Source: Candidatus Methanoperedenaceae archaeon (lineage in GTDB: Archaea; Halobacteriota; Methanosarcinia; Methanosarcinales; Methanoperedenaceae). From it: a stretch of DNA of 64,000 nucleotides. The DNA is taken from assembly GCA_963753595.1 (NCBI GenBank), contig CAVWCX010000001.1, forward strand, positions 1 to 64,000, written 5' to 3'. The notes beneath the pieces are model-generated. The model was not told the origin of the DNA. It searched no databases and saw only the letters and a list, made by a program, of their open reading frames with translations. Shown piece after piece: positions 45,364-59,448 of this stretch (its first letter is position 1; every line of letters starts with the position of its first letter). A program made the position numbers and the translations under genes.

Positions 45364-46551
45364 TCAGACGTCCTCTGAAGCCACTGCATACCCATTGAAC
45401 ACCTTTTTCAGGAAATGCCTGACCAGATGCGTTTCCTCTTCGATTTCCAGAAGGAATGCATCATGCCCGTATGTGGAATTTATTTCGCAATACGTAGCCT
45501 CGATTCCTGCCAGTTTGCATATTTTCAAGATATCTTTTGATTGGTAAGTCGGGTATAGCCAGTCTGATTTGAAAGCCATTATCAGGAAATTTGCCCTGAT
45601 ATCTTTAAAAACTTCAAGGAGCGTCCTGCCATTTGAAAGATCAAAATAATCCAGCGCTTTTGTAATATACAGGTAAGAATTGGCGTCAAACCTCTTGACA
45701 AAATTATCCCCGTGATAATGAAGATATCTTTCTACTTCAAATTCCGCCCCGAATCTGGATTGGATATTCCCGTTCTTGATGCGCCGCCCGAATTTCTCAC
45801 TCATTGAAGTATCGCTCATATAAGTGATATGACCGATCATCCGTGCCACTGCAAGACCTTTTGATGGAGGTGGGCCGCCGTAGTAATTCCCCCTTTTCCA
45901 TTGAGGGTCTGCCATAATCGCCTGCCGTCCTGCCTCATTAAAAGCGATCTGCTGCGGAGAATGTTTAAGCGTCGCAGCAATTGGAATGACGGAGCTTACT
46001 CTTTCAGGATATGAAGCAGCCCACTGCAGCGCCTGCATTCCACCCATCGAACCGCCCACAACGCACAGTAGCTTTTCAATTCCAAGATGATCTATTAAGT
46101 ACTTCTGGGCATTGATCATATCTTTGATGGTGATCGTCGGAAAATCCAGCCCGTATGGCCATTTTGTTACAGGATTGATAGACGAAGGGCCGGTCGAACC
46201 TTTGCAACCGCCAAGCACGTTGGAACAGATAACAAAATATTTATCAGTATCAAATGCTTTTCCCGGCCCTATCATCTCATCCCACCAGCCGGATTTATCA
46301 TCCCCGCTATAAAAACCGGCTGCGTGAGCATCTCCGGAGAGGGCGTGAAGGACAAGTATCGCATTGGTTCTCCCAGGATTGAGCCTGCCGTATGTTTCAT
46401 ATGCAAGTGTTATAGGCCCCAGTTTTTCACCAGAGTCCAGGATCAACTCATCCGGGGGAGAAGCGAAAGTAAAGAACCTGATCCCTACTAGTCCGATACT
46501 TTGCGTCGGTTTTACGTTTCGCAGACTATCCAATACGATCGTTTCGCTCAT
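45364..46551 (-). CDS. metX: Homoserine O-acetyltransferase
   Basis: HALSGD, GGSMGG, RFDANSY, GHDAFL. Confidence 0.95.
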
Positions 46552-46561
46552 GGTATGTCAA

Positions 46562-48259
<1,698 letters not shown>

Positions 48260-48273
<14 letters not shown>

Positions 48274-48604
48274 AAGAGGCGAAGTTTATTGGGTCAAACT
48301 CGATCCGATCGAAGGATCAGAGATCGGGAAAACAAGACCAGCTGTCGTGATCTCAAATAATATTAACAATGAATTTGCTGATACTTTAACTGTCATTCCT
48401 GTCACTTCAAGTGTTGGGAAAGTGTACCCTTTTGAAGTTCTCATAAAGAAAGGTATTGCAAATGTATCAACCGATTCTAAAGTCAAGGCAAATCAAATAA
48501 GAACGGTGGATAAAAAGAGGCTGAATGAGCGAATAGGGATAATTCCTGATGAGATATTGAAAGAGATAGAGAAAGCCGTGAAGATCCACCTTGAAATTAA
48601 GTAA
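48260..48604 (+). CDS. mazF: MazF/PemK endoribonuclease toxin
   Basis: RGEVYWV.LDP..GSE.GKTRPAVVIS, QIRTVDK.RL. Confidence 0.93.
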
Positions 48605-48611
48605 GATCCTC

Positions 48612-48776
48612 TTAATTCAAACCTGCATAATCCATTACTGCTTTCTGGTCATTCAGGAATTTAACGATCTTCTCAAATTCGATATCATTTCCAGGTTCCT
48701 TGTTTTTGGTCTTAAGTTCAAAAGAGCTGTTCATTCTGGGACTGTTACATATTTTTTTCATCATATCGAGCACCAT
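48612..48776 (-). CDS. 54-aa hypothetical protein
   Basis: Manual translation MVLDMMKKICNSPRMNSSFELKTKNKEPGNDIEFEKIVKFLNDQKAVMDYAGLN; TTATATA upstream. Confidence 0.45.
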   Translation of the reverse strand: MVLDMMKKICNSPRMNSSFELKTKNKEPGNDIEFEKIVKFLNDQKAVMDYAGLN

Positions 48777-48868
48777 GAAGAGATAACACCGGTGAACATA
48801 TATAATTACACAAAGAGGCAGATGTTGACATAATTATTCCAACAACAAAAAAGCGTCTCAACTTATGA

Positions 48869-49168
48869 TTACATCTCTATCAAAGCAAGCTCGAACTTGA
48901 TCCCCATGCAGGATTGGCAGAATCCCATGAATTCTTTTGCATTGACGGACATTTCATCGTAGAGAGATTTCGATATGTAACAAACTATGTGGACTTTTCC
49001 GGGGTTCCCGGCGAGTTTCTTTTTTATTTCGCCGTGAAGCTCCTCAAAAATCGCCACAAAGGTCTTAAAGTTGATCCTTTTCAGGATACGGATGCGCCCC
49101 ACCCCTGTTTCATCTACCCATATCCTGTAATTGGCAGATTTTCTAACAAAAAGATCCGTATCATCCAT
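48869..49168 (-). CDS. Hypothetical protein with C-terminal CxxC
   Basis: ORF track; starts 10 nt after upstream stop; FCQSC. Confidence 0.75.
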   Translation of the reverse strand: MDDTDLFVRKSANYRIWVDETGVGRIRILKRINFKTFVAIFEELHGEIKKKLAGNPGKVHIVCYISKSLYDEMSVNAKEFMGFCQSCMGIKFELALIEM

Positions 49169-49177
49169 AATAGATTC

Positions 49178-49586
49178 TTAGTTCCTCTTACCGGCCTGGA
49201 TATCCCATCTCACATCTTGCGCCAGAGACCGTCTTGCAGCAGCTGCAATATCTAATTGTTCATATATATATTCACGTAAGTACATATCTTCTATTTTTTC
49301 CGCTTCATTTTCGATCTCATGCTGGCGACTGAGAATGTTTCCAAGTTCTCTTTGTGCATGATTCCTGTCTGTACGCTGCCAGCTTTCAGCTATTGTCGAA
49401 AGCGAGCGCCTTAATCTTTCAAGTCCGATCCTTATCCGGTGGAATTCCGGTCTTTTCAATCTTTCTTTTGCATAGTTTTCATATGGCGATTCCTGTTGAA
49501 TTTCCTCTGAAAATTCATCTATATCCGATACTTCACCATTCCATTTGTTATGGATGGCAAAAACGATCCCTTCTTTGGTTTAACAT
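49178..49586 (-). CDS. Helical protein predicted to need a +1 frameshift at TTT-TGC (49562-49557); ~135 aa
   Basis: ATG 49586 ORF MLNQRRDRFCHP*; +1 frame open from 49580 to 49178 without ATG at its 5' end. Confidence 0.7.
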
Positions 49587-49744
49587 ATATTTCACATCAT
49601 CTTCATTAAAAAGATGATATATATCCCTGAATATACAGGCAGGTTTTGTCACCATCTAAACAGAACCGGAATTATTACGACAACAATTGCCTGATAGGGT
49701 AAACTTATGCTGATACTCTTCATAAAATGGTTTCGGTGATCAAT

Positions 49745-50035
49745 ATGAGGGATATTTTTACAGGTGATGGGTTTAAGTTGCCAGATACAGGCATTTCAGG
49801 AAAAGGATTGGAAAATTACAGTTCTGCTAAGATCGAAGAATTCTCACCTTCGATGAAACTTGTTCTCAATATACTTGAAAATCATGGGCCACTGACACAA
49901 AAAGAGATAACGAAGGTAACCCGTCTTCCCACAAGAACAGTGCGCTATGCCTTAAACAGATTAAAACAGGAAGATATTTTAGAAGAGCGTGAATATTTCC
50001 AGGATGCCAGGCAGTGTTTATATCATATAAAATGA
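49745..50035 (+). CDS. Winged-HTH regulator (MarR/Lrp-like archaeal family), in-frame paralog, 96 aa
   Basis: SPSMKLVL.IL...GPLTQKEI...T.LP.RTVRYAL.RL...DARQ; GGTGATC RBS. Confidence 0.88.
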   Translation: MRDIFTGDGFKLPDTGISGKGLENYSSAKIEEFSPSMKLVLNILENHGPLTQKEITKVTRLPTRTVRYALNRLKQEDILEEREYFQDARQCLYHIK

Positions 50036-50176
50036 TTAGGCTTTTTTCAGGACTCTACAAGACTTGTTTTCAGGTAATAATTGCCTTTGTCTTTCTGGAA
50101 ACCGAATGAATATATCAAATTTGGCTCATTTACTCGATTTAAATATATATGAAAACTATGTTGTTTTGGTGATAAA

Positions 50177-50333
50177 ATGACACTACAAGAAAACAGAAGG
50201 GATTTACTTTGTCCCCGGAATAAAATACAGTAAAACAAAAAAGGCTATCAATCCCGAAAGTGATCAGGAGAAAGCATTGGGCGAATTTCAGGTTAATGCC
50301 CGGATGCATGATAATGTCTGGTGGCTTATATGA
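50177..50333 (+). CDS. Small protein predicted to need a +1 frameshift at CTT-TGT (50207-50212); ~51 aa
   Basis: GGTGAT RBS; ORF MTLQENRRDLLCPRNKIQ*; +1 frame ends in ATGA overlap with the next gene. Confidence 0.6.
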
Positions 50334-50479
50334 CCGCGACCAGACAGTACAAATGCCCGAACTGCAAACATTCGATATCGATAGCAACGGCAGATTTCAT
50401 CCGGGGGATTGCCATGACATCATGCGGTGATTGCGGCAGGAATGCTTTTGCAATAGACGAAGTTCTGTTGAATGGATAA
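50330..50479 (+). CDS. 49-aa zinc-ribbon microprotein
   Basis: Manual translation MTATRQYKCPNCKHSISIATADFIRGIAMTSCGDCGRNAFAIDEVLLNG; GGTGG RBS. Confidence 0.75.
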   Translation: MTATRQYKCPNCKHSISIATADFIRGIAMTSCGDCGRNAFAIDEVLLNG

Positions 50480-50791
50480 AAAAAAACAGGGCGCTTTAAA
50501 TGATCCTATCCATTGGCGCCCCTTTCCTTATTTTTTGAGGTAAAAATGAATAATAATAATGAAGAAAGAAATAAAAATAAAAATCCAGATGATGATGAAG
50601 ACCTGAGGCGCTTCCTGCGTGGAGGTTTTGGGGCAAAGTGAGCGCACGAGCAATAACGGAATGTGTCCGGGGGGTCACATTTCACCTCCTGTTTTATTAC
50701 TTCCAAAAGAATCAGATCAGTTGTGACAACAATTGCTCCGATAAATAGGTTTATAAAGGTTAAATCCAAGTTTAAGCTGGAGAATTTAAAA

Positions 50792-51080
50792 ATGAATTTT
50801 AGAAGGAATCGTCTTTGCCATTACTGGCCCACAGATTGAATCGATAAAGATAGACCATTTACCGCCATCAGCAAAACTTGTTTTTAAGGTGCTTGAATCG
50901 AGCGGTTTTTTAACACAGAAAGATATTGCAAAGCAAACATATCTTCCGGCCAGGACAGTGCGTTATGCCCTGAACAGGCTGAAAGAAGAAAAAATATTGC
51001 AGGAGCGCTTCTATTTCCAGGATGCGCGCCAGAGCCTTTATGGGCTGAATGTTATTGTTCCGGGGGTGGTGAACGTATAA
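50792..51080 (+). CDS. Winged-HTH regulator predicted to need a +1 frameshift at CTT-TGC (50813-50818); ~95 aa
   Basis: ORF MNFRRNRLCHYWPTD*; +1 frame encodes LPPSAKLVFKVLE...RTVRYALNRL upstream of its first possible start (GTG 50889). Confidence 0.78.
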
Positions 51081-51150
51081 TTTACCTTACCTCCTTATTT
51101 TTTAGACCGCTGCTAATCACTTTTTTTGTAAAATCGAATTATTCGGGTAA

Positions 51151-51510
51151 TTATACGCGCGAATCTCTCAGCCTGTATTTAGCATACGCCAGAACATTCT
51201 CCTCAATGAACCCCGGAGCTTCAACTGGCTCTATACCCATGCTCTGCAATCCTTCTGCAGCCCCTCCTCCGATCCTGCTGCACAGCACCGCATCGCAGTC
51301 ATTGATCAGAGAAACACTTTTTTCAAGAGCATCATCGGCATGACCGCCATACTCAAGAGTACCGCATGAGGGATCGTTCTCTCTCACCTCAATGACTTTG
51401 ATCCCTTCTCCATCGGATTCTATTATGATGAATTTTCTTGCCTTCCCGAAATGCTGGTTAATAACCTTACCATCACTTGAAGCAATTGCCATCTTTAAAC
51501 TTGTCTTCAT
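51151..51510 (-). CDS. NifB/NifX-family cofactor-binding protein
   Basis: AIASSDG..INQHFGKA, DCDAVLCSRIG. Confidence 0.9.
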   Translation of the reverse strand: MKTSLKMAIASSDGKVINQHFGKARKFIIIESDGEGIKVIEVRENDPSCGTLEYGGHADDALEKSVSLINDCDAVLCSRIGGGAAEGLQSMGIEPVEAPGFIEENVLAYAKYRLRDSRV

Positions 51511-51514
51511 GATC

Positions 51515-52378
51515 TCACACCAGCGGTCTTGGCTGCTTTTCATTGGGCAGTACCGGGAGCTTCATCGTATTCACAAGGATCGGGTCTTTCACTTCTTTTG
51601 CCCGCTCAAGCAAAAACTCTCTTCCTCTTCTGGTGATCGCGAATATGGGTACAGCCGTGCCGAATTGCGCTATGGTCTTTCCAGCTACGCCAGCCCGTAT
51701 CCATTTTGATGTGCAGCCTGTGGTCATATCCACAAGATCGATAAATTCTTTTGCTTCGTTATCAGGCATGCCTGTTGAATGTACTCCGAATGCTATTACT
51801 TCAGAGCCGGTTTCCTTTTCGATTTTTCTTATTTCTTTGAGATCTTTGAGATTTGCCACGGATACACCTATCTTCCTGTATCCAAGCTTTATGGCTTTTC
51901 TCACCCCGCTCACCTGGTCTATCGCGGCAGTGTCGGGGTCAATGACCACGCCGTCAGCAGCCTCTATCCTTTTGATCAGCCCCTGTATTGGTGACGTCTC
52001 CGTCAGTCCTGATATGCGCGAGCCCATGCCCTGACAGAGTTTGGGATTGCTCGTGATTACTGTGCCCGCCCCGTCGCAAACGGTAACTGTGGTGTCGAGC
52101 AGCCCGCGCCGCAGGGCGGTCATGAAAGTTTCGCTTGCCCCGAACCCCACGAATATCTCCATCTCCAGTTCACGGTTCTCTGTGAACATGCCGAAATCTT
52201 TCATCCTGAATTCTATATTTTCCCTGGCGGTCTTTGGGGTGAATTTCTTGATCCCCCTGACCTTATCAAAGATGGGACAGTACTCAGTCATCGGAACACC
52301 GACCTCAATTACCTTCCCGTTCTCAATGACTACTCGCGTTCTGCCCTGAAGTTCCATTACATGTCGTTCTTTTGGCAT
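51515..52378 (-). CDS. Methanogenesis marker protein 8 (DUF2099)
   Basis: HVME..G, YCPIF, NIEFR..DFGMFT, FGASE, VCDGAGTV, SGL.ETSPI. Confidence 0.9.
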   Translation of the reverse strand: MPKERHVMELQGRTRVVIENGKVIEVGVPMTEYCPIFDKVRGIKKFTPKTARENIEFRMKDFGMFTENRELEMEIFVGFGASETFMTALRRGLLDTTVTVCDGAGTVITSNPKLCQGMGSRISGLTETSPIQGLIKRIEAADGVVIDPDTAAIDQVSGVRKAIKLGYRKIGVSVANLKDLKEIRKIEKETGSEVIAFGVHSTGMPDNEAKEFIDLVDMTTGCTSKWIRAGVAGKTIAQFGTAVPIFAITRRGREFLLERAKEVKDPILVNTMKLPVLPNEKQPRPLV

Positions 52379-52455
52379 AATTTGCCTCCTTATATTATGA
52401 ATAGTCCTTGCATACTTTTAACGGCTGGCTTTTCGGCAAATTGAGTGAAAAAAGA

Positions 52456-52468
52456 GGCAAATTTTGCC
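52456..52468. promoter_or_regulatory. Best copy of putative operator GGCAA-N3-TTGCC
   Basis: GAGGCAAATTTTGCCTC; variants at 49679, 50073, 50725, 59411, 60722, 62067, all intergenic and upstream of genes. Confidence 0.6.
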
Positions 52469-52543
52469 TCAATTGTATAGCTCGTTAGGTGGGTTTAATG
52501 TTGAGAATTAAGCAATTTTTCCTTTTCGGCAATAACTTACCAA

Positions 52544-52777
52544 TCACCCCTTCTTCACAAAAATGTGGTATGCTCCCTCTTTTGTTTTGACATCAAGGAA
52601 CTCATCACCGGATTTTGTCAACCATACATCGATATTTTGCCAGGCTTCAGGATCGCTGGCTATGACCTCGAGTATTTCACCTTTGTTGAGTTTTCTTAAT
52701 TCCTGAAGTGTCATTACTCGTGGATAGGGGCATTTCTCTCCACGGACGTCCAGCTTAACATTTGAAATTATGGTCAT
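52544..52777 (-). CDS. TusA/SirA sulfurtransferase
   Basis: LDVRGEKCPYP, GEILEVIASD. Confidence 0.92.
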   Translation of the reverse strand: MTIISNVKLDVRGEKCPYPRVMTLQELRKLNKGEILEVIASDPEAWQNIDVWLTKSGDEFLDVKTKEGAYHIFVKKG

Positions 52778-52788
52778 TATTAACCGCC

Positions 52789-53829
52789 TTATTTTTTATT
52801 TATATCTGCAATTGCCGCTTCTAAAAAGCTCTTATCTATCCAGGAATTGTAATCCACTTTTCCTTCCAGTAAATTATTTTCCTTCATGAATTCCTCTTCG
52901 TCTTTCAGGGCTTGAATTGAAAGATCTGTAATTCTCGGGTCATTATAAACGGTCTTATTGTCGGGATACGCTGCCCTTGTAGCTGTCTCGTTTTGTTTTT
53001 TTGCTTTAGCAAATATTTTCATTGCTTCATCAAAATGTTCATCTGCCCATTGCGATGTTTTCAGATCGATTTTCAATAATCTTTTTACGATTTCAGGATG
53101 TTTCTTTGCAAAATCTCCACGAACGTTGATCGGACTTGGTGGTGATTGGAATTCGGGATGATCTTTTCCACTCCATAGTATTCTTGCTTCCCCTGTGGAT
53201 AAAAGTGGAAATGTTGTACTCTCGCTTTCTACAAGAGCATCGACATCCCCTCTTATCAAGGCTGGACCGGAGGCTGTAAAATCGAGATTGAACGATTCAA
53301 TATCTTTGATAGACAATCCCTCTGTTTTCAATGCTTTTGTAATAGTTGCATGGCGCACAGTCCCTTTCAAATAAGCCACTTTTTTGCCTTTTAGATCCTT
53401 GACGGATTTTATAGCTGAATCATTCCTGACTATTATTGAAGAGGCTGAAATCGGATTACCAAAAGATGAGAGCCCAATTAGTTTGATATCTGCACCAGCT
53501 GCTGCGGTACGCAAAGCCGGATCAGTACCAGTATACGTGAAATCAAGACCGCCGCTGGCTAAAGCTACCATAGCTTCGGAGCCTCCGCCAGTAAATGGAT
53601 AATACTCTATTTTTATCCCATCCTTTGCGAATTCTTCATCCAACCACCCTTTTTCTATGTTTAATAAGAATTTGAGATGGCCAGGGGCTGTACTTCCAAT
53701 TTTAATTACTGAGATCTTTTCCTCACTATTTTGTGAGTTATTTTCATAAAAATAAATACCCGCCGAGCCTATTAATAAGGCTATTATCCCAATACTTAAT
53801 GCTGATTTACGTGTCATATTTTCCCACAT
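52789..53829 (-). CDS. SsuA/TauA-type ABC substrate-binding protein
   Basis: N-terminal anchor, F..DGI.IE...F.GG, IKSVKDLKGKKVA. Confidence 0.88.
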   Translation of the reverse strand: MWENMTRKSALSIGIIALLIGSAGIYFYENNSQNSEEKISVIKIGSTAPGHLKFLLNIEKGWLDEEFAKDGIKIEYYPFTGGGSEAMVALASGGLDFTYTGTDPALRTAAAGADIKLIGLSSFGNPISASSIIVRNDSAIKSVKDLKGKKVAYLKGTVRHATITKALKTEGLSIKDIESFNLDFTASGPALIRGDVDALVESESTTFPLLSTGEARILWSGKDHPEFQSPPSPINVRGDFAKKHPEIVKRLLKIDLKTSQWADEHFDEAMKIFAKAKKQNETATRAAYPDNKTVYNDPRITDLSIQALKDEEEFMKENNLLEGKVDYNSWIDKSFLEAAIADINKK

Positions 53830-55233
53830 TTATTTAAGTATCTCTATAAATGATTCTATACGATTCTGTGTCTGTTCAACTGATTCTAATCGTCCCAGTT
53901 CAGCAACTTCCAGGTTAATTGTTGGGACCCCTGTTTCTTCTTTCACAATGTCGGCGATCATCCTGGAAACAGCCGATTGGTAGCTGCATCCCCAGTTATA
54001 GCCGCATATAACACCATCAGCTCTTGATTTTTTCACTAATCCGACTATCCACTCAGCACGCACCTCAGTGGATTGTTCATAGGAATACGAAAGCACGCTT
54101 CGGGCTAATTTTTCATACGAATCGCCTGTTTCCTCAACATCGGCATAAATTTTGTTTAAGTGGTCATCTGTTCCCACTATTAAACCGCCTTTTTCTTCTA
54201 CGAAATCACCGCGAAGACCAAAGCACGAACCGCATGAAAATACCCTGACCGGATCGTCCTCTAATCCATCTGCTTTTACCGAGTGCTTTATCCGATCCTT
54301 TACTTCACGTTTTGCCCCCTCAAGAAGCTGTGTTGCGGCAAGAGAATCGCCTCGATCAAACCTGCCAAGAGTGATAGTACTTGATGTCTCTGTACTATTT
54401 ATTGGAGGAGTTGATGCCGACCAGGAAAGCTCAACCGTTTCACGCGCCAGCCGCCGTCCTTTATTTTCCAGCTTGATCTCCTTTTTCAGATCTTCATCGC
54501 TGGCTTCACTACCTTTTATTTCACCGATCTTTTTTATCAACCCATAAATTCTTGCTGCAAGATATTTTACTGTCCAGTCTTTATCCCGGGTGATAGGATA
54601 ATCGATTAAATATACAGGTACCTTGTGTTTATGAGTTCTATAAGATTCGATCGCATAAGCAATATCTGAGCAGCGTAAGCACATATACGGTGCGATCAGA
54701 TCAACAGGTACTAATTCTTGATGAATTGATTCTATGGCAGCTATTGGATTGTTGCACGCCTCGATAGAGACTGCTTTTCTTCCGCCTTCAAGTATTGTAT
54801 TCACGCGCTTGCCCGCTTCTCGTAAATTTAACCCTTCTTCCATATCCCTTGCCCAGCCCCTGAGTGGTCCTGGAACAATGGGTATCCCTCCGGCTGCAAA
54901 ATAAGGATCAACGGTCTGCCCTCCCTGAACATGTATGATCGGTGTACCCTGGCTATGTGCTTTTAAAAGGCGGTCCCTCAGTGTAAGAGAAAGATAGCCC
55001 CTTTTTATCCCGCTGAAGAATCCCACATCTTTTGACAATTGGCTATTGTGGAATCGTCCCAAACTGAATGCATGGGGAAATCTTCTTGGAGCTTCTTTTG
55101 TCATAAAATTCCAGATATCGGTGGATGAAACATGTGTCCCATCCCTGAAATCAAGTCCAGGGGTTTCTATAAATCGTTCTTTTATTTCTTCGGGGTATGA
55201 AAAGATTTCTTCGTTGTTATTTAATTTATTCAT
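53830..55233 (-). CDS. 2-hydroxyacyl-CoA dehydratase (HGD-D)/double-cubane-like Fe-S protein
   Basis: EACNN, CLRCSD, SCGSC, ADGVI...WGC.YQ, TQNRIESFIEIL. Confidence 0.82.
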   Translation of the reverse strand: MNKLNNNEEIFSYPEEIKERFIETPGLDFRDGTHVSSTDIWNFMTKEAPRRFPHAFSLGRFHNSQLSKDVGFFSGIKRGYLSLTLRDRLLKAHSQGTPIIHVQGGQTVDPYFAAGGIPIVPGPLRGWARDMEEGLNLREAGKRVNTILEGGRKAVSIEACNNPIAAIESIHQELVPVDLIAPYMCLRCSDIAYAIESYRTHKHKVPVYLIDYPITRDKDWTVKYLAARIYGLIKKIGEIKGSEASDEDLKKEIKLENKGRRLARETVELSWSASTPPINSTETSSTITLGRFDRGDSLAATQLLEGAKREVKDRIKHSVKADGLEDDPVRVFSCGSCFGLRGDFVEEKGGLIVGTDDHLNKIYADVEETGDSYEKLARSVLSYSYEQSTEVRAEWIVGLVKKSRADGVICGYNWGCSYQSAVSRMIADIVKEETGVPTINLEVAELGRLESVEQTQNRIESFIEILK

Positions 55234-55245
55234 ATTTCCTCTTAT

Positions 55246-55430
55246 TTATTTAAGTATCTCAATAAATGATTCTATTCGATTCTGTGTTTGTTCTACAGAT
55301 TCCATCCTGCCAAGCTCGGCAACTTCGATATTGATAGTTTGAATTCCTGTTTCTTCTTTAACAATGTCTGAGAGTATTCTGGAGATCCCGGACTGGTAAT
55401 TTGTTTATCCTGTCTATTTGATTGATTCAT
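55246..55430 (-). pseudogene. Internally deleted HGD-D paralog
   Basis: MNQSNRQDKQ joined out of frame to YQSGISRILSDIVKEETG...QNRIESFIEILK, near-identical to the neighbour's C-terminus. Confidence 0.85.
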
Positions 55431-55475
55431 ATTTTTAATCCCATATTTTCATAATTATATATTATAAATAATATT

Positions 55476-56336
55476 TTATAATATTGCTGTATCATGTTCC
55501 CCTTTCCAGTATGTTGCTTTCTTTTCCATCCAAACAAGTGCATAGTTTAGTGATAGACCAATTATTGCAAGAGTTAATATTCCCGCATACATCTCGGGAA
55601 TGCGAAACATTAGCTGGGAATCCTGGACAAAATACCCTAATCCTGATTTAGCAGCCAGCATCTCAGCGCCAATTACTACCATCACAGCCGCTTTGGCTGA
55701 AAGCCTCGCACCGGCGATAATAGATGGAATAGTTGCCGGGATGATGATTTTTTTGAAGAGATCTATATCCGATATCCCAAATGATTTAGCGGCTTTTATA
55801 AAAAGAGGATCAACACTCTTTACCCCACTTATTGTATTAATTAACATATACCAGAGCGCCGCATAAAATACTATAGCGATCTTTGAAGTTTCACCGATTC
55901 CAAACAGCATGATGAATAATGGAAGCAAAGCGAATTGCGATGTGTTTCTTAAACTCTGGATGAGTAGATCCGTATACTTTTCAACACGCGAATACCATCC
56001 CATCAAAAGCCCCAATGGAATAGCAATAATGGCGGCTAATCCAAATCCCAGAATAGATCGTTCCATACTTGCTTTTGCATGAAATAATATTTCTCCAGAT
56101 AAAACAAGATTTTTTAGAGTTAAAACTGTTTCAGAAAAGGTGGGGAAAAATATCGAACTGACTAAACCTGTCCTGGGCAGCACCTCCCATGCAAAAAAGA
56201 AGGCAAACAGAAGTATAAGACCATGAGCATGTTTGCTTATTTTTATAATCTTCTCTTTAAATCTCTTTATAAAGCCTTCGATCCCTAAAAAATCTACTTT
56301 TAATTCTTCTTTAGAACTGAATATTTCTTCTACCAT
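55476..56336 (-). CDS. SsuC/TauC-type ABC permease
   Basis: INTISGVKSVD...IKAAKSFG, GAEMLAAKSGLG. Confidence 0.9.
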   Translation of the reverse strand: MVEEIFSSKEELKVDFLGIEGFIKRFKEKIIKISKHAHGLILLFAFFFAWEVLPRTGLVSSIFFPTFSETVLTLKNLVLSGEILFHAKASMERSILGFGLAAIIAIPLGLLMGWYSRVEKYTDLLIQSLRNTSQFALLPLFIMLFGIGETSKIAIVFYAALWYMLINTISGVKSVDPLFIKAAKSFGISDIDLFKKIIIPATIPSIIAGARLSAKAAVMVVIGAEMLAAKSGLGYFVQDSQLMFRIPEMYAGILTLAIIGLSLNYALVWMEKKATYWKGEHDTAIL

Positions 56337-56362
56337 CTGTATTATCCTCCTTTTTTTCTTTT

Positions 56363-57199
56363 CTATCTTGCATACACAGATGCCAGCTCCCAATCTTTCT
56401 GTGCTTTGAGTACTTCTTCTTTAAGCGCTCCCCAGACTTTATGCCGGTTGTCTGCGAATTCATTACTTGATCTTATGTCTGCGTCTCTTGGTCTTGAAAG
56501 ATCAATATCTAATATTGTTTTTATAATTCCAGGTCTGGCTGTCATAACAGCGACCCTGTCTGCAAGGAATACTGCTTCGTCGATACTGTGAGTTACGAAG
56601 ATAACAGTTGTATGAGTTTTTTCCCAGATTTTGAGAAGCTCATTCTGAAGAATTTCACGGGTTTGTGCATCCAGGGCGGCATAAGGTTCGTCCATCAACA
56701 ATACATCAGGATTGGTTGCAAGCGCTCTTGCTATGGCAACTCTTTGCTGCATACCACCGGAAAGTTGATAGGGAAATCGATCTCCAAAGTCTGACAACCC
56801 GAATTGAGACAAAAGCTTTTTTGCAATTTGTCCTCTTTCCCCTTTTGGAACATTTCGCATTTCTAGTCCGAATTCTATGTTAGAAAGAGCTGTCCTCCAT
56901 GGAAACAACGCATACTGCTGGAATACATATGCAGTTTTGATATTAGGGCCGTCAAGAATTTTGTCATCGATATAGACTTTTCCGGTGGTATGATTTGTCA
57001 ATCCGCCAATTATATCAAGAAATACTGATTTTCCGCAACCACTTGGACCAACAAGTGTGAGAAATTCCCCTTTTCTGATGTTCAGGTTAACGCCAGCCAG
57101 CACCTCAACTTCATTGGAAATCAAGCCGTTGCTGATCACTTTCTGCCCATCTTTAAGTTTAAATTTTTTCGTAATGTCCTCAGTTCTTATTTTGTCCAA
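56363..57199 (-). CDS. SsuB/TauB-type ABC ATPase
   Basis: GPSGCGKS, LSGGMQQR, MDEP, VTHSIDEA. Confidence 0.93.
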   Translation of the reverse strand: MDKIRTEDITKKFKLKDGQKVISNGLISNEVEVLAGVNLNIRKGEFLTLVGPSGCGKSVFLDIIGGLTNHTTGKVYIDDKILDGPNIKTAYVFQQYALFPWRTALSNIEFGLEMRNVPKGERGQIAKKLLSQFGLSDFGDRFPYQLSGGMQQRVAIARALATNPDVLLMDEPYAALDAQTREILQNELLKIWEKTHTTVIFVTHSIDEAVFLADRVAVMTARPGIIKTILDIDLSRPRDADIRSSNEFADNRHKVWGALKEEVLKAQKDWELASVYAR

Positions 57200-57310
57200 T
57201 CAAAACATCTCCTTCCAATCGTATTCGACTGCGGTATTGTCATTAATTCTTGATCGCAGAATTTCAATAAAAGCCTCAACGCGATTTTGAGAGCTGTATA
57301 GCTCTTTCAC
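57200..57310 (-). pseudogene. 36-codon in-frame relic of another HGD-D paralog
   Basis: GGAGGT RBS, GTG AAA GAG CTA TAC then SQNRVEAFIEILRSR... Confidence 0.8.
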
Positions 57311-58500
57311 GCATTTACCTCCTGAATATTTTTATTTCTTACAAGCTCTATAAAAGCCTCAGCTCTTGTTCGTATAGCTCCTTCATCAGAACCGGCATAT
57401 TCCGTATGGATCTCAAGCAAGGGTATTCCCTCTGTTTTGAGAACGTTCTTTGTTTCGCCTGCCTTGAAAGTCCAGGGATCGCAATATCTCAATGTGTGAT
57501 AGATTACTCCCTGCGCCCTGTTGTCTTTGATCAATTGTTTCAGATTTTTAAGCCTCTTATCCGTTTCCAATTCCAAATAAGGTAGCGATGCATGAGGAAC
57601 CCGGTTAAGATATGCGTCTGCTATGCCCTCTATAGAAGGTTCTTTAATATTTACATCCAGGATCGGGTTAAGCCCAGACCACAGGTCATCTCCTACTATC
57701 GTGCCGCCCACCTGCTCGATAATATTTATCAGCTTTCTATCTTTAGGAGGAATTATGCTGCCGGATATGAAAATGCGGGCATCTCCGTTAAGATTTCCAG
57801 TTTTTGGGGTGCCGTGTTTTTCTTTCAGTTCTTTTAAAAGTTCCTGGAGTAATGAATTATACCGCCCTCTATCAAGGTAATATCCTGCCTGTACTATATC
57901 GAAAACTTCACGCCATTTTATAGGTGGTTTGTCAGCTGATTGGTATTTGTATAATTCTATTATGGATTTCCTTATGCTATTGTAAAGTTTGATGGATTCT
58001 GCAAGTTTCTTCTTATCAAGTTCGGTTCCTGCGAATTTTTCTAATCTATGCGTGAAGGCCTCTACTTCTTTGCGGAAATATTCCTGTCCTTCAGGCAGAT
58101 CAAAATTCTTTGGAACTCCAAGAATATCAGTGTTGACCTTGAAGTAATGTTTTATAAGCTCTGCCACGCGGTATGTTTGTAAGCAGGTTGCATCCACTGC
58201 TACCAGATCTGAATTTTTAATATATGGATCCTGGTTCTCTGCAAAGAGCCCTACGAGCTCTCTTGTAAAAACACAATTCTTTGTGGATATATACCTGGAG
58301 CCAATTTCAACCAGTCTGTCGTCTCCTCCTGTTCCAAGCCTGATCGGGATTAATCCAAGGGCGTGGATGATCTCTTCAGGGATATTGTAATTAAACCACC
58401 CAACAACCTTTTCCCCTTTTTTTCTTGCTTCTGCAAGCTCCTGAGGTCTATCCTTTACTGCATTTTCTATTTTGTTTATAGTCTCTAATACCATACTCAC
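57307..58500 (-). CDS. 2-hydroxyacyl-CoA dehydratase subunit (HgdB-like)
   Basis: PEEII.A.G..P, three Cys (KNCVF, ATCLQ, RYCDP), TRAEAFIE. Confidence 0.88.
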   Translation of the reverse strand: MSMVLETINKIENAVKDRPQELAEARKKGEKVVGWFNYNIPEEIIHALGLIPIRLGTGGDDRLVEIGSRYISTKNCVFTRELVGLFAENQDPYIKNSDLVAVDATCLQTYRVAELIKHYFKVNTDILGVPKNFDLPEGQEYFRKEVEAFTHRLEKFAGTELDKKKLAESIKLYNSIRKSIIELYKYQSADKPPIKWREVFDIVQAGYYLDRGRYNSLLQELLKELKEKHGTPKTGNLNGDARIFISGSIIPPKDRKLINIIEQVGGTIVGDDLWSGLNPILDVNIKEPSIEGIADAYLNRVPHASLPYLELETDKRLKNLKQLIKDNRAQGVIYHTLRYCDPWTFKAGETKNVLKTEGIPLLEIHTEYAGSDEGAIRTRAEAFIELVRNKNIQEVNA

Positions 58501-59303
58501 ACCTTTGAGCCATAGCTCCTGGCGAGTACTGCCGCTCCCAGTGCCCCAACCAACTGCGGATCATATTCTGGCGCAACTATCTTCGCTTTAAGTACTTCTT
58601 CCAGCGCTGCTTTCATTCCTACATTTTTTGCAACTCCGCCTGAGAAGAAAACATCGCTCTCCACACCTACACGCGAAAACATCCCTGATATCCTGTTTGC
58701 AATGGCATGGTGTATTCCTTTAATTATATTCCCCGGTTTCTCACCTCTTGCCAGCAGTGAGACTGTTTCGGATTCTGCAAAAACCGTGCATGTGCTGCTC
58801 ATCGGGACGATTTCTTTTGCATTTAATGACAGCGGACCCAGGTCGTTCAGTTTAACCTTAAAAACATTTGCCATAACTTCAAGGAACCGCCCTGTTCCTG
58901 CTGCGCATTTGTCGTTCATTGCAAAATCTACAACGTTTCCTTTCTCATCCAGGCGGATCGCTTTGCAATCCTGCCCACCCATGTCTATTATTGTTCTTGT
59001 TGCAGGGTGCAGGTAATGTGCCCCCCTGCCATGGCAGGTAATCTCGGTTACTGTTTTATCTGCATAAGGCGCTGAGATCCTTCCATAACCGGTTGCAACT
59101 ATGTATTTCAGGTCATCACGCTTGAGTTTTGCAGATTTAAGCGCTTTTTCAAGAGCAAGCAAGCCGCTCTCTTCTGAGTTCAATCCGGATTGAACAAGAC
59201 CATACCCGAGGATCGAGCCATTTGACACAATTACTGATTTTGCTGTCAGCGAGCCTACATCCACACCCGCAAATGGCGGTTTTATATTTGATTTCGTTGT
59301 CAT
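58497..59303 (-). CDS. ATP-dependent activator (HgdC/BadF-BadG archerase)
   Basis: GVDVGS..AK, ATGYGR, EITCH, DMGGQD.K, MNDKCAAGTG, STCTVFAESE. Confidence 0.95.
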   Translation of the reverse strand: MTTKSNIKPPFAGVDVGSLTAKSVIVSNGSILGYGLVQSGLNSEESGLLALEKALKSAKLKRDDLKYIVATGYGRISAPYADKTVTEITCHGRGAHYLHPATRTIIDMGGQDCKAIRLDEKGNVVDFAMNDKCAAGTGRFLEVMANVFKVKLNDLGPLSLNAKEIVPMSSTCTVFAESETVSLLARGEKPGNIIKGIHHAIANRISGMFSRVGVESDVFFSGGVAKNVGMKAALEEVLKAKIVAPEYDPQLVGALGAAVLARSYGSKV

Positions 59304-59448
59304 ATCTTCCTCCTCTTTTACTAAGAGTAAGGTCAATATTCCCTGTGGATATATCACAGTTTAGAAATCAGCAACTATCGCCCTATTTATTCCAGATTCT
59401 GCATGATTGCGGCAATATTTTCCGATTCAATTCTGTTTTATGCCGTTT

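Follow-up and report, generated by a model that had tools for sequence, protein, structure and literature searches.

The window, a stretch of 64,000 nucleotides (nt) from a Candidatus Methanoperedenaceae genome, contains three genes (A, B and C) headed by a common short cassette with the consensus (AGA or ATG) AGG RAT NNN YTT TGY, which also heads a fourth gene 18 kb off in the same genome. Cassette A lies on the minus strand at 49574-49556 (AGAAGGGATCGTTTTTGCC, read AGA AGG GAT CGT TTT TGC C), with TTT at 49562-49560 as the proposed codon of the ribosomal peptidyl site (P site) and a cysteine (Cys) codon at 49559-49557 as that of the aminoacyl site (A site). Cassettes B (50195-50213; AGAAGGGATTTACTTTGTC, AGA AGG GAT TTA CTT TGT C) and C (50801-50819; AGAAGGAATCGTCTTTGCC, AGA AGG AAT CGT CTT TGC C) are on the plus strand. 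Positions and sequences are as given in the initial annotation, which had proposed a Cys-sensing +1 frameshift shared by the three genes. With one mismatch allowed, the motif matched three times in the window, against a mean of 0.12 after shuffling, and three or more matches were seen in 0 of 100 shuffles.

Each cassette is contained in a short leader open reading frame (ORF), whose frame is called frame 0 here. The leader of gene A (49548..49586, minus strand) encodes MLNQRRDRFCHP and a stop; its ATG is preceded by GTGA, which resembles a Shine-Dalgarno (SD) sequence, and the order SD, ATG, three codons, AGA AGG is retained in its orthologs. Those of B (50177..50233; MTLQENRRDLLCPRNKIQ and a stop) and C (50792..50839; MNFRRNRLCHYWPTD and a stop) are on the plus strand, with the SD GGTGA 4 nt 5′ of the start in B. 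Across the three cassettes the distance from the ATG is 4-7 codons, and the frame-0 stop follows the Cys codon by 2-6 codons. The long ORFs all lie in the +1 frame, closed by a stop 2-5 codons 5′ of the cassette and having no ATG, GTG or TTG before the shift site, which confirms for all three genes the upstream-closed, startless ORFs described at first. None of the three products contains Cys.

When the whole genome was searched (2.89 Mb, 37 contigs), the fourth cassette was located outside the window at C1:68816-68798 on the minus strand, where it precedes an ORF of about 70 codons and three DsrE-like genes. A looser genome-wide scan gave 15 matches, and the frame logic was seen in four only, the three window copies and the one at C1:68816. 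Contigs of four metagenome runs were compared over 49100-51200, and no indel fell within any cassette among the indels listed. The same frame break occurs in dozens of independent genomes, several of them single-contig, and sequencing error is therefore excluded.

The +1 ORF of gene A after the shift (49178..49558, minus strand) has 126 codons and a stop and belongs to no Pfam family. Its product is predicted to be a helical bundle (predicted local distance difference test score, pLDDT, 83.6) with the first 22 residues after the shift disordered in the model; no Foldseek match was obtained at E <= 0.001, the best (E 0.41) being generic helical bundles. By protein homology search the family is restricted to Methanoperedens and one sister genus. 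The +1 ORF of gene B (50211..50333, plus strand; 40 codons, ending in MHDNVWWLI) has a stop that overlaps the next start (ATGA), so that a zinc-ribbon ORF at 50330..50479 (plus strand; 49 residues, 4 Cys) is translationally coupled to it; in some genomes the zinc-ribbon ORF is joined directly to the cassette. Gene C (+1 ORF 50817..51080, plus strand) encodes a winged-helix regulator, for which Pfam HTH_24 scored 25.6 bits against a cut-off of 21.9 and no NCBIfam model matched. It is a member of the family that bears the cassette across the phylum.

Conservation and frame architecture of the cassette

Similarity to named relatives (80-89% identity) assigns the window to Candidatus Methanoperedens. 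The strict 19-mer was found in 37 of 48 other Methanoperedens genomes and its reversed control in 0, and a relaxed form was found in 43/44 genomes of the genus and 47/48 genomes sampled from the family. At least six unrelated ORF families are headed by the cassette in Methanoperedens. In family A (+1 ORF of about 135 residues, no Pfam family) a 99-residue ORF follows 10 nt downstream; in family B (about 51 residues) the stop overlaps the ATG of the zinc-ribbon gene; family C is the winged-helix (HTH_24) regulator. Family D (about 73 residues) has a DsrE/DsrH-like gene 5 nt downstream, family E (about 46 residues) passes through TAATG into a PBP_like_2 lipoprotein, and family F (about 20 codons) passes through TAAATG into a TOBE-domain protein. 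When orthologs were collected by protein homology, the cassette was retained in 29 of 30 cases for A, the exception carrying AGA TGG instead of AGA AGG, and in 30 of 30 for C, with YTT TGC kept throughout; 19 of the C orthologs have the long form (AGA AGG) and 11 a short form with ATG in place of AGA. Separately, ATAAGGAATTNATTTTGG recurs many times per genome in G147, G036, G101, G143 and G139 of genus g12 and accounts for about 10 of the 11 matches in G147; it is probably a dispersed repeat with no relation to the cassette.

The survey was extended to one archaeal phylum. The short form ATG AGG GAT CGT TTT TGY heads a single winged-helix regulator in three families of the order, in the sister order and in other classes of the phylum. 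In other families of the order the relaxed pattern was present in 11/20 and 35/48 genomes, and in 0/27, 0/6 and 0/1 in three more. Class-wide, 154 of 392 genomes had the short form. Among these were 13/13 in one genus, 46/105 in a sister order (some genomes with several copies) and, with the regulator version, 26 of 59 in a genus of genomes reaching 5.8 Mb, which its named proteins mark as probably Methanosarcina. In a phylum sample of 251 genomes the relaxed motif was found in 35, with 1 match for the reversed control. At the inspected loci an SD is followed by ATG AGG GAT CG(T/C) TTT TG(T/C), frame 0 reads MRDRFC and ends at once or within a few codons, and the +1 ORF encodes a domain with the pattern ...LPPSAKLV(F/Y)KVLE...RT(V/I)RYAL.RLK....

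A phylum-wide protein search recovered the cassette at 28 of 30 regulator loci, among them three families in other classes; the two loci lacking it are distant high-GC paralogs. In a further homology-found set of the regulator, YTT TGY was present in 16/16. Named proteins of the family come from Methanosarcina, Methanomethylovorans, Methanolobus, Methanoregula, Methermicoccus and ANME-2. In public records the regulator appears either as N-terminally cut proteins of 56-96 residues or as ORFs extended through the 5′ region; the truncated form of Methanomethylovorans hollandica is named Metho_0605 at NCBI. The small winged-helix regulator is proposed as the ancestral client of the cassette.

Frame architecture was counted on 146 non-redundant cassette copies from all fetched loci; several of the counts rest on copies selected by motif, and loci selected by homology were counted separately. 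The nearest SD-preceded start was in cassette frame 0 in 138 of the 146 and out of that frame in 1; for the other 7 none was found. The frame-0 start lay 3, 12, 15, 18, 21, 24 or 27 nt away, all multiples of three. Between the upstream stop and the shift site the +1 frame had no ATG, GTG or TTG in 135/146, and in 57/146 the upstream +1 stop abuts the cassette directly; the frame-0 stop comes 0-12 codons past the Cys codon. Protein conservation begins at the first +1 codon after the site. In having its only start in frame 0 and its conserved protein confined to +1, the arrangement is that of +1 programmed frameshift sites.

The P-site codon was CUU in 68 copies and UUU in 78, with no others. 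The A-site codon was UGC or UGU in 146/146, where the pattern required TGY, and the same held in all 88 homology-found orthologs with the cassette. YTT-T, the shift site itself, was invariant in all homology-found orthologs. The +1 phenylalanine (Phe) codon is always TTT and never TTC, though TTC makes up 46% of Phe codons in this genome. Variation between TGC and TGT is silent in frame 0 and switches alanine (Ala) and valine (Val) in +1; variation between CGT and CGC is silent in frame 0. The base after TGY, which is silent for Ala/Val in +1, was C in 97 copies, T in 35, A in 14 and G in 0. Indels just 3′ of the site in orthologs are multiples of three in +1 and leave the frame open. Because variation in the cassette follows codon positions and the indels beyond it are of whole codons in +1, the switch of frame is placed at YTT-T. 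Rare variants have GGG or AGT in place of AGG. The codons GCG and GTG are frequent in this genome, yet no G follows the cassette Cys codon; the first +1 codon may need a particular tRNA.

The absence of Cys from the products, claimed at first for the window genes, holds there and in 125 of the 146 post-shift products overall, where the chance for a single product is estimated at about 0.38 (1.08% Cys codons, 90 residues); it does not extend to the coupled downstream genes, some of which are Cys-rich.

Evidence of a different kind comes from a paralog of gene C, P, which lies in the window at 49745..50035 (plus strand). It starts ATG AGG GAT ATT TTT ACA (MRDIFTG...) and needs no frameshift; its winged-helix product scored 30.0 bits with HTH_24 and 30.1 with MarR_2 (cut-off 27). 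Within family P, 11 of 17 distinct 5′ ends read ATG AGG GAT CGT/ATT/CAT TTT GCA/ACA/TCA in one frame (MRDRFA.., MRDIFT..). In family C the sequence is ATG AGG AAT CGT CTT T GCC AAC.., with exactly one T more at that spot. A close relative thus carries as its genuine N-terminus what the cassette encodes in frame 0, and this paralog is the strongest single piece of evidence for a change of frame.

Two further observations were made at these 5′ ends. One copy of family P (locus L076, genome G023) is broken by one extra base (ATG AGG TAT CGT TTT GTC AGA TAA) and has no Cys codon at the site; it may be decaying, misassembled or shifted in a different way. In short-form C genes of Methanoperedens, such as L070, the SD region GGTGATGAACCA contains an ATG in the +1 frame, which opens an ORF of three codons (M N Q) ending at a TGA that overlaps the real start; in one public variant that TGA is changed to TGG and the +1 ORF runs on.

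A proposed translational switch and its alternatives

The cassette genes of the window stand among sulfur genes, as had been noted from the letters: Pfam confirms MetW, a MetX-type hydrolase, MetY, TusA and an NMT1-type binding protein of an ATP-binding cassette (ABC) transporter. MetW/MetX/MetY bound the cassette genes on one side; on the other lie a NifX-like protein, methanogenesis marker 8, TusA, the NMT1-type ABC system and DsrE-like genes. A survey of neighbours covered 16 regulator loci from 16 genomes of five families, with 144 ORFs of >= 130 residues within 6 kb, grouped by similarity and each group named from one representative. SepCysS was found beside the regulator at 7/16 loci (two copies were tested, both over the cut-off of NCBIfam TIGR02539) and a homocysteine synthase/O-acetylhomoserine sulfhydrylase at 6/16. 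A CysP-like permease and a sulfite-reductase-like protein each occurred at 4/16, and 3′-phosphoadenosine-5′-phosphosulfate (PAPS) reductase, a cysteine-desulfurase-like enzyme and a NifH-like protein each at 3/16. At least one clear sulfur-assimilation gene was present at 11 of the 16 loci.

SepCysS occurs in 199/251 genomes of the phylum sample and is encoded by all families with a cassette-like match; in families with regulator homologs and without SepCysS the cassette was found in 0/35 (f15 0/16, f25 0/7, f28 0/7, f26 0/3, f23 0/2). The present genome has SepRS, SepCysS and CysRS, so that charged Cys-tRNA would depend in part on a sulfur-transfer step, and Cys codons are the rarest of those tabulated. 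Regulation of sulfur assimilation and of tRNA-dependent cysteine synthesis in methanogens is, to our knowledge, largely unknown. The comparative evidence strongly supports the view that the genes share a +1 frameshift cassette, that its shift site holds a Cys codon and that it belongs to a sulfur context, and the cassette extends far past the window.

At L173, L175, L182, L167, L171, L172 and L177 the regulator-adjacent SepCysS scores lower (E ~1e-149) than the best copy (~1e-177); it appears to be an extra paralog, such genomes showing 2-3 SepCysS matches. NifH-like genes adjoin cassette regulators in L131 (G288), L134 (G287), L135 (G234) and L168 (G504), accompanied by NifD/K-like genes in L131, L134 and L168 and, in L131, by ORFs that were named by eye, a MetQ-like lipoprotein and others of ABC type. 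These Nif-like genes may represent a nitrogenase-like sulfur-salvage system.

From the comparison of sequences, programmed +1 ribosomal frameshifting at the cassette is likely. That the shift occurs at YUU_U while a hungry Cys codon occupies the A site, as a translational switch sensing Cys-tRNA, is judged on balance probable. Translation would begin at the ATG behind the SD, and ribosomes would cover 1-9 frame-0 codons until YUU (leucine, Leu, or Phe) reached the P site with UGY in the A site, where they would pause. On arrival of Cys-tRNA(Cys), frame 0 would continue and end 0-12 codons later, yielding the short peptide only. If the A site stayed empty, the peptidyl-tRNA, Leu-tRNA(GAG) or Phe-tRNA(GAA), would re-pair one base forward on UUU; tRNA-Ala or tRNA-Val would then read GCN or GUN, and the real protein would be made in +1. 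Scarce Cys-tRNA would thereby raise shifting, and the regulator would activate the neighbouring genes. Since Cys-tRNA is made largely through SepRS/SepCysS in these organisms, the A-site signal would report sulfur supply directly. In Methanoperedens the 5′ module would have spread to other transcription units, the +1 ORF being a protein in A and C and a short ORF in B, D, E and F; as the stop of the short ORF abuts the next start, the shift would also deliver ribosomes to the downstream genes. With even confidence we suggest that many methanogens and anaerobic methanotrophs of the phylum may use the ribosome to gauge their sulfur status. Synthesis of a master winged-helix regulator, governing cysteine, homocysteine and sulfate assimilation, would require that Cys codon 6 go unfilled, SepCysS failing to turn Sep-tRNA(Cys) into Cys-tRNA(Cys), and in Methanoperedens the portable module would have been copied to at least five further transcription units, gating downstream genes by translational coupling.

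The tRNA genes of this genome fit these steps in kind. There is one tRNA-Cys(GCA); tRNA-Leu(GAG) and tRNA-Phe(GAA), both able to re-pair on UUU, are present, as are tRNA-Ala(GGC), tRNA-Val(GAC) and other Ala and Val isoacceptors. An internal SD had also been proposed. The duplex energies with the 16S tail GGAUCACCUCCU were -8.7 kcal/mol for A, -6.7 for B and -4.0 for both C and D, where random 13-mers gave a mean of -3.15 and a 5% quantile of -7.3; gene A is in the top 2%, and 30% of random sequences match C and D. The proposal is thus borne out in part only, pairing being good for GGGATC forms, as in gene A, and weak for GGAATC forms (C, D).

Several points weigh against a Cys-sensing frameshift. 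Related genomes are not independent, so that there were fewer separate events than counts such as those on the 146 copies suggest. For some copies no shift is needed: in P0120 the +1 frame is open from an upstream ATG, a gene in G108 starts MKEGIIF.., and in L080 the cassette itself contains an ATG. As protein, the +1 reading of the cassette is therefore tolerated; from their sequences, such copies would fit an N-terminus that matters little. The fourth copy of this genome (family D) carries ATT where all relatives seen carry the frame-0 ATG, and may be either weakly started or disabled. Anti-SD pairing is weak for the AGGAAUC form and good for the common AGGGAUC, which is probably the ancestral form. 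The YTT-TGY heptamer is not avoided in ordinary genes of this genome (observed/expected for in-frame codon pairs: CTT-TGC 0.84, CTT-TGT 0.82, TTT-TGC 0.93, TTT-TGT 1.13); it is thus not strongly shifty alone, and the upstream element, perhaps with proximity to the start, must contribute. No conserved RNA structure was found in 16 cassette regions of five families, the consensus being a mini-stem of 5 pairs at -0.7 kcal/mol. The co-distribution with SepCysS is confounded by descent, as methanogens are compared with SepCysS-less families. TGY can also be explained by the slip, which needs the T, together with an Ala/Val codon in +1, so that the Cys reading is favoured and not proven.

The serious alternative, though a rather unlikely one, is that the +1 frameshift is real and is either constitutive, a fixed fraction of ribosomes shifting, or governed by another cue. 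Such a cue could be a shortage of S-adenosylmethionine that leaves G37 of tRNA-Leu(GAG) or tRNA-Phe(GAA) under-modified, or general stress on translation shortly after initiation. The tRNAs for CUU and UUU carry 1-methylguanosine 37 (m1G37) or wyosine, the loss of which promotes +1 slips. The frame evidence serves this explanation equally, P-site codons are CUU and UUU only, the lack of avoidance of the heptamer means that the A-site codon alone is not decisive, and TGY is explained in part by the needs of the slip and the +1 codon. Against it, the A-site codon is Cys in every homology-found ortholog, and SepCysS is the commonest neighbour of the regulator. Protein-level constraint on the +1 Ala/Val is unlikely, because the residue lies in a poorly conserved N-terminus predicted to be disordered. 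Of 94 TGR-pattern matches listed, the 8 most cassette-like were inspected and none had the cassette logic in a UGA or UGG version, the other 86 being judged by sequence alone. Sensing of Cys-tRNA is favoured over the other cues, though not proven, by the invariant Cys codon and the SepCysS neighbourhood.

Initiation without any shift, the frame-0 ORF being an independent leader peptide and the main ORF starting at AUC or AUU after GGR in +1, would account for ATY at the same +1 position in nearly all copies. L080, L099, L152 and L162 have ATG there and in L156 a GTG precedes, public annotation starts some Methanoregula homologs at that point (MIVFV../VIVFV..), and in some versions an upstream ATG opens the +1 reading of the cassette. 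The purine-rich stretch, however, ends 1 nt before ATY, which is too close to act as an SD, and the real SD is 4-8 nt before the frame-0 start. That start is in frame at seven distances, in 138/146 copies, for which an independent leader would have no need, and neither the invariant YTT TGY nor the N-terminus of paralog P is explained; we consider non-AUG initiation improbable. A binding site on DNA or RNA, for example for winged-helix proteins, with the frame relations as side effects and the downstream ORFs starting elsewhere or decaying, is very improbable. The conserved 15-19 nt do form an island of nucleotide conservation amid variable flanks, clients include DNA-binding proteins, and a CAATTG palindrome is enriched upstream (within -170 to -10 in 31/156 copies, against 5.9% of random windows). 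Such a site would be expected in random frame or orientation, as the initial annotation had pointed out. Strand and frame are constant and the start is always near, downstream ORFs are conserved at the protein level from the first codon after the site, and cassette variation follows codon positions.

Four other candidates were rejected. For quadruplet decoding, ARAGORN listed 36 tRNAs, and the isoacceptors printed (those for arginine, Leu, Val, Ala, Phe and Cys) and the unusual classes queried all had three-base anticodons; moreover, reading of CTTT or TTTT as one step everywhere would break genes C and A at a second in-frame copy. Transcriptional slippage needs a homopolymer run of about 7 or more, and the T runs here are only T3 (CTTTG) or T5 (GTTTTTG). 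A leader-peptide attenuator or regulatory upstream ORF is at odds with the lack of a +1 start in 135/146 and with the consensus structure of only -0.7 kcal/mol in the 16 sequences. A site of the prfB type would have UGA, not UGC/UGU, in the A site and release factor 2 as its product, not a winged-helix protein and others.

Relation to known systems and neighbouring features

In bacterial prfB, the gene of release factor 2, a +1 shift takes place at CUU UGA C with an internal SD. The cassette resembles it in having a slippery P-site CUU or UUU followed by U, a slow A-site UGN and a purine-rich element a few bases upstream, and in that A-site occupancy would report supply of the regulated molecule. 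Unlike prfB, it uses a sense Cys codon (UGA was absent from the copies inspected), belongs to an archaeal host and stands at a distance of 5-13 codons from the start; it serves a transcription regulator or a leader ORF instead of a translation factor, and 16S complementarity is strong in GGGAUC forms only. In yeast, sites of the Ty1/ABP140 type shift +1 at CUU AGG C with a hungry A-site codon, whose tRNA is permanently scarce and the ratio fixed. The seven-base site is alike (CUU-UGC-C and CUU-AGG-C), a Leu-tRNA would slip in the P site while the A site awaits a scarce tRNA, and the first +1 codon seems constrained, the next base never being G in the 146 copies. The proposed signal here is metabolic (Cys-tRNA charging), unlike that in yeast, and the site is SD-led, prokaryotic in style and start-proximal. 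In attenuation at the trpL and hisL leader peptides, alternative terminator hairpins are formed. A very short 5′ ORF with a codon of the regulated amino acid, in which ribosome progress reports charged-tRNA supply, is common to both; in the cassette the output would be a change of frame, sensing would rely on one codon only, a conserved structure was looked for and not found, and the main ORF is startless (135/146).

The general principle of +1 frameshifting at hungry codons is described in the available part of one review (PMC5009743). Another, as far as its text is available, describes the antizyme +1 frameshift of eukaryotes as a polyamine sensor that shifts at a stop codon and is stimulated by polyamine and a pseudoknot (PMC8211752). 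As proposed for the cassette, frameshifting is there both sensor and effector of a metabolic feedback loop; the cassette differs in that the proposed shift is at a sense Cys codon and in archaea. The same part describes fucA1 of Saccharolobus solfataricus, a -1 frameshift on the heptamer A-AAA-AAT in a single gene of one lineage with no metabolic logic known (PMC8211752). Like fucA1, the cassette genes would be archaeal cellular genes split over two frames and expressed by recoding; unlike it, the proposed shift is +1 and many genes and lineages are involved. In the available parts of these recoding reviews (PMC8211752, 2021; PMC5009743, 2016), fucA1 is the one demonstrated archaeal cellular frameshift and no +1 shift is given outside a virus. 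In the openly readable literature, supplements lying outside the search, no description of the cassette, the peptide or the regulator was found. As read here, the cassette works like prfB and the yeast CUU-AGG-C sites and is a member of neither.

If this reading is true, archaeal cellular genes would gain their first conserved +1 programmed frameshift, in the form of a deeply conserved site that hundreds of genomes carry, and the cassette would also be the first natural frameshift sensor of aminoacyl-tRNA controlling a transcription factor. For sulfur regulation, a specific regulator, its likely regulon and a candidate signal (Cys-tRNA) are indicated. A portable module of 15-19 nt linking translation to the supply of one amino acid could serve archaeal genetics.

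Around the cassette genes, the 99-residue ORF at 48869..49168 (minus strand) starts 10 nt past the stop of gene A and is likely in the same operon; its relatives adjoin cassette genes in other lineages. At 48046-48604 (plus strand) an ORF of 75 residues with no Pfam match is followed by a PemK/MazF-type toxin gene, and from sequence the two look like an inserted toxin-antitoxin pair that separates MetY from the cassette genes. An Rfam scan of 46000-54000 at E <= 1 gave two weak chance matches only. Palindromes of the ACAATTG(T/C) type lie at 49680-49691, 50077-50093 and 50724-50738, and also 5′ of a cassette gene at L131; the CAATTG palindrome is a candidate operator for winged-helix proteins. 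Directly downstream of gene C on the opposite strand (51151-52378, minus), a NifX/NifB-like protein with a Nitro_FeMo-Co domain overlaps the end of methanogenesis marker 8 (DUF2099, TIGR03275). Farther on, at 53830-59357 (minus strand), the NMT1-type ABC transporter has its permease and ATPase genes interspersed with two genes of the HGD-D type (2-hydroxyacyl-CoA dehydratase-like) and one for an activator ATPase of the BcrAD/BadFG type; this pairing is unusual.

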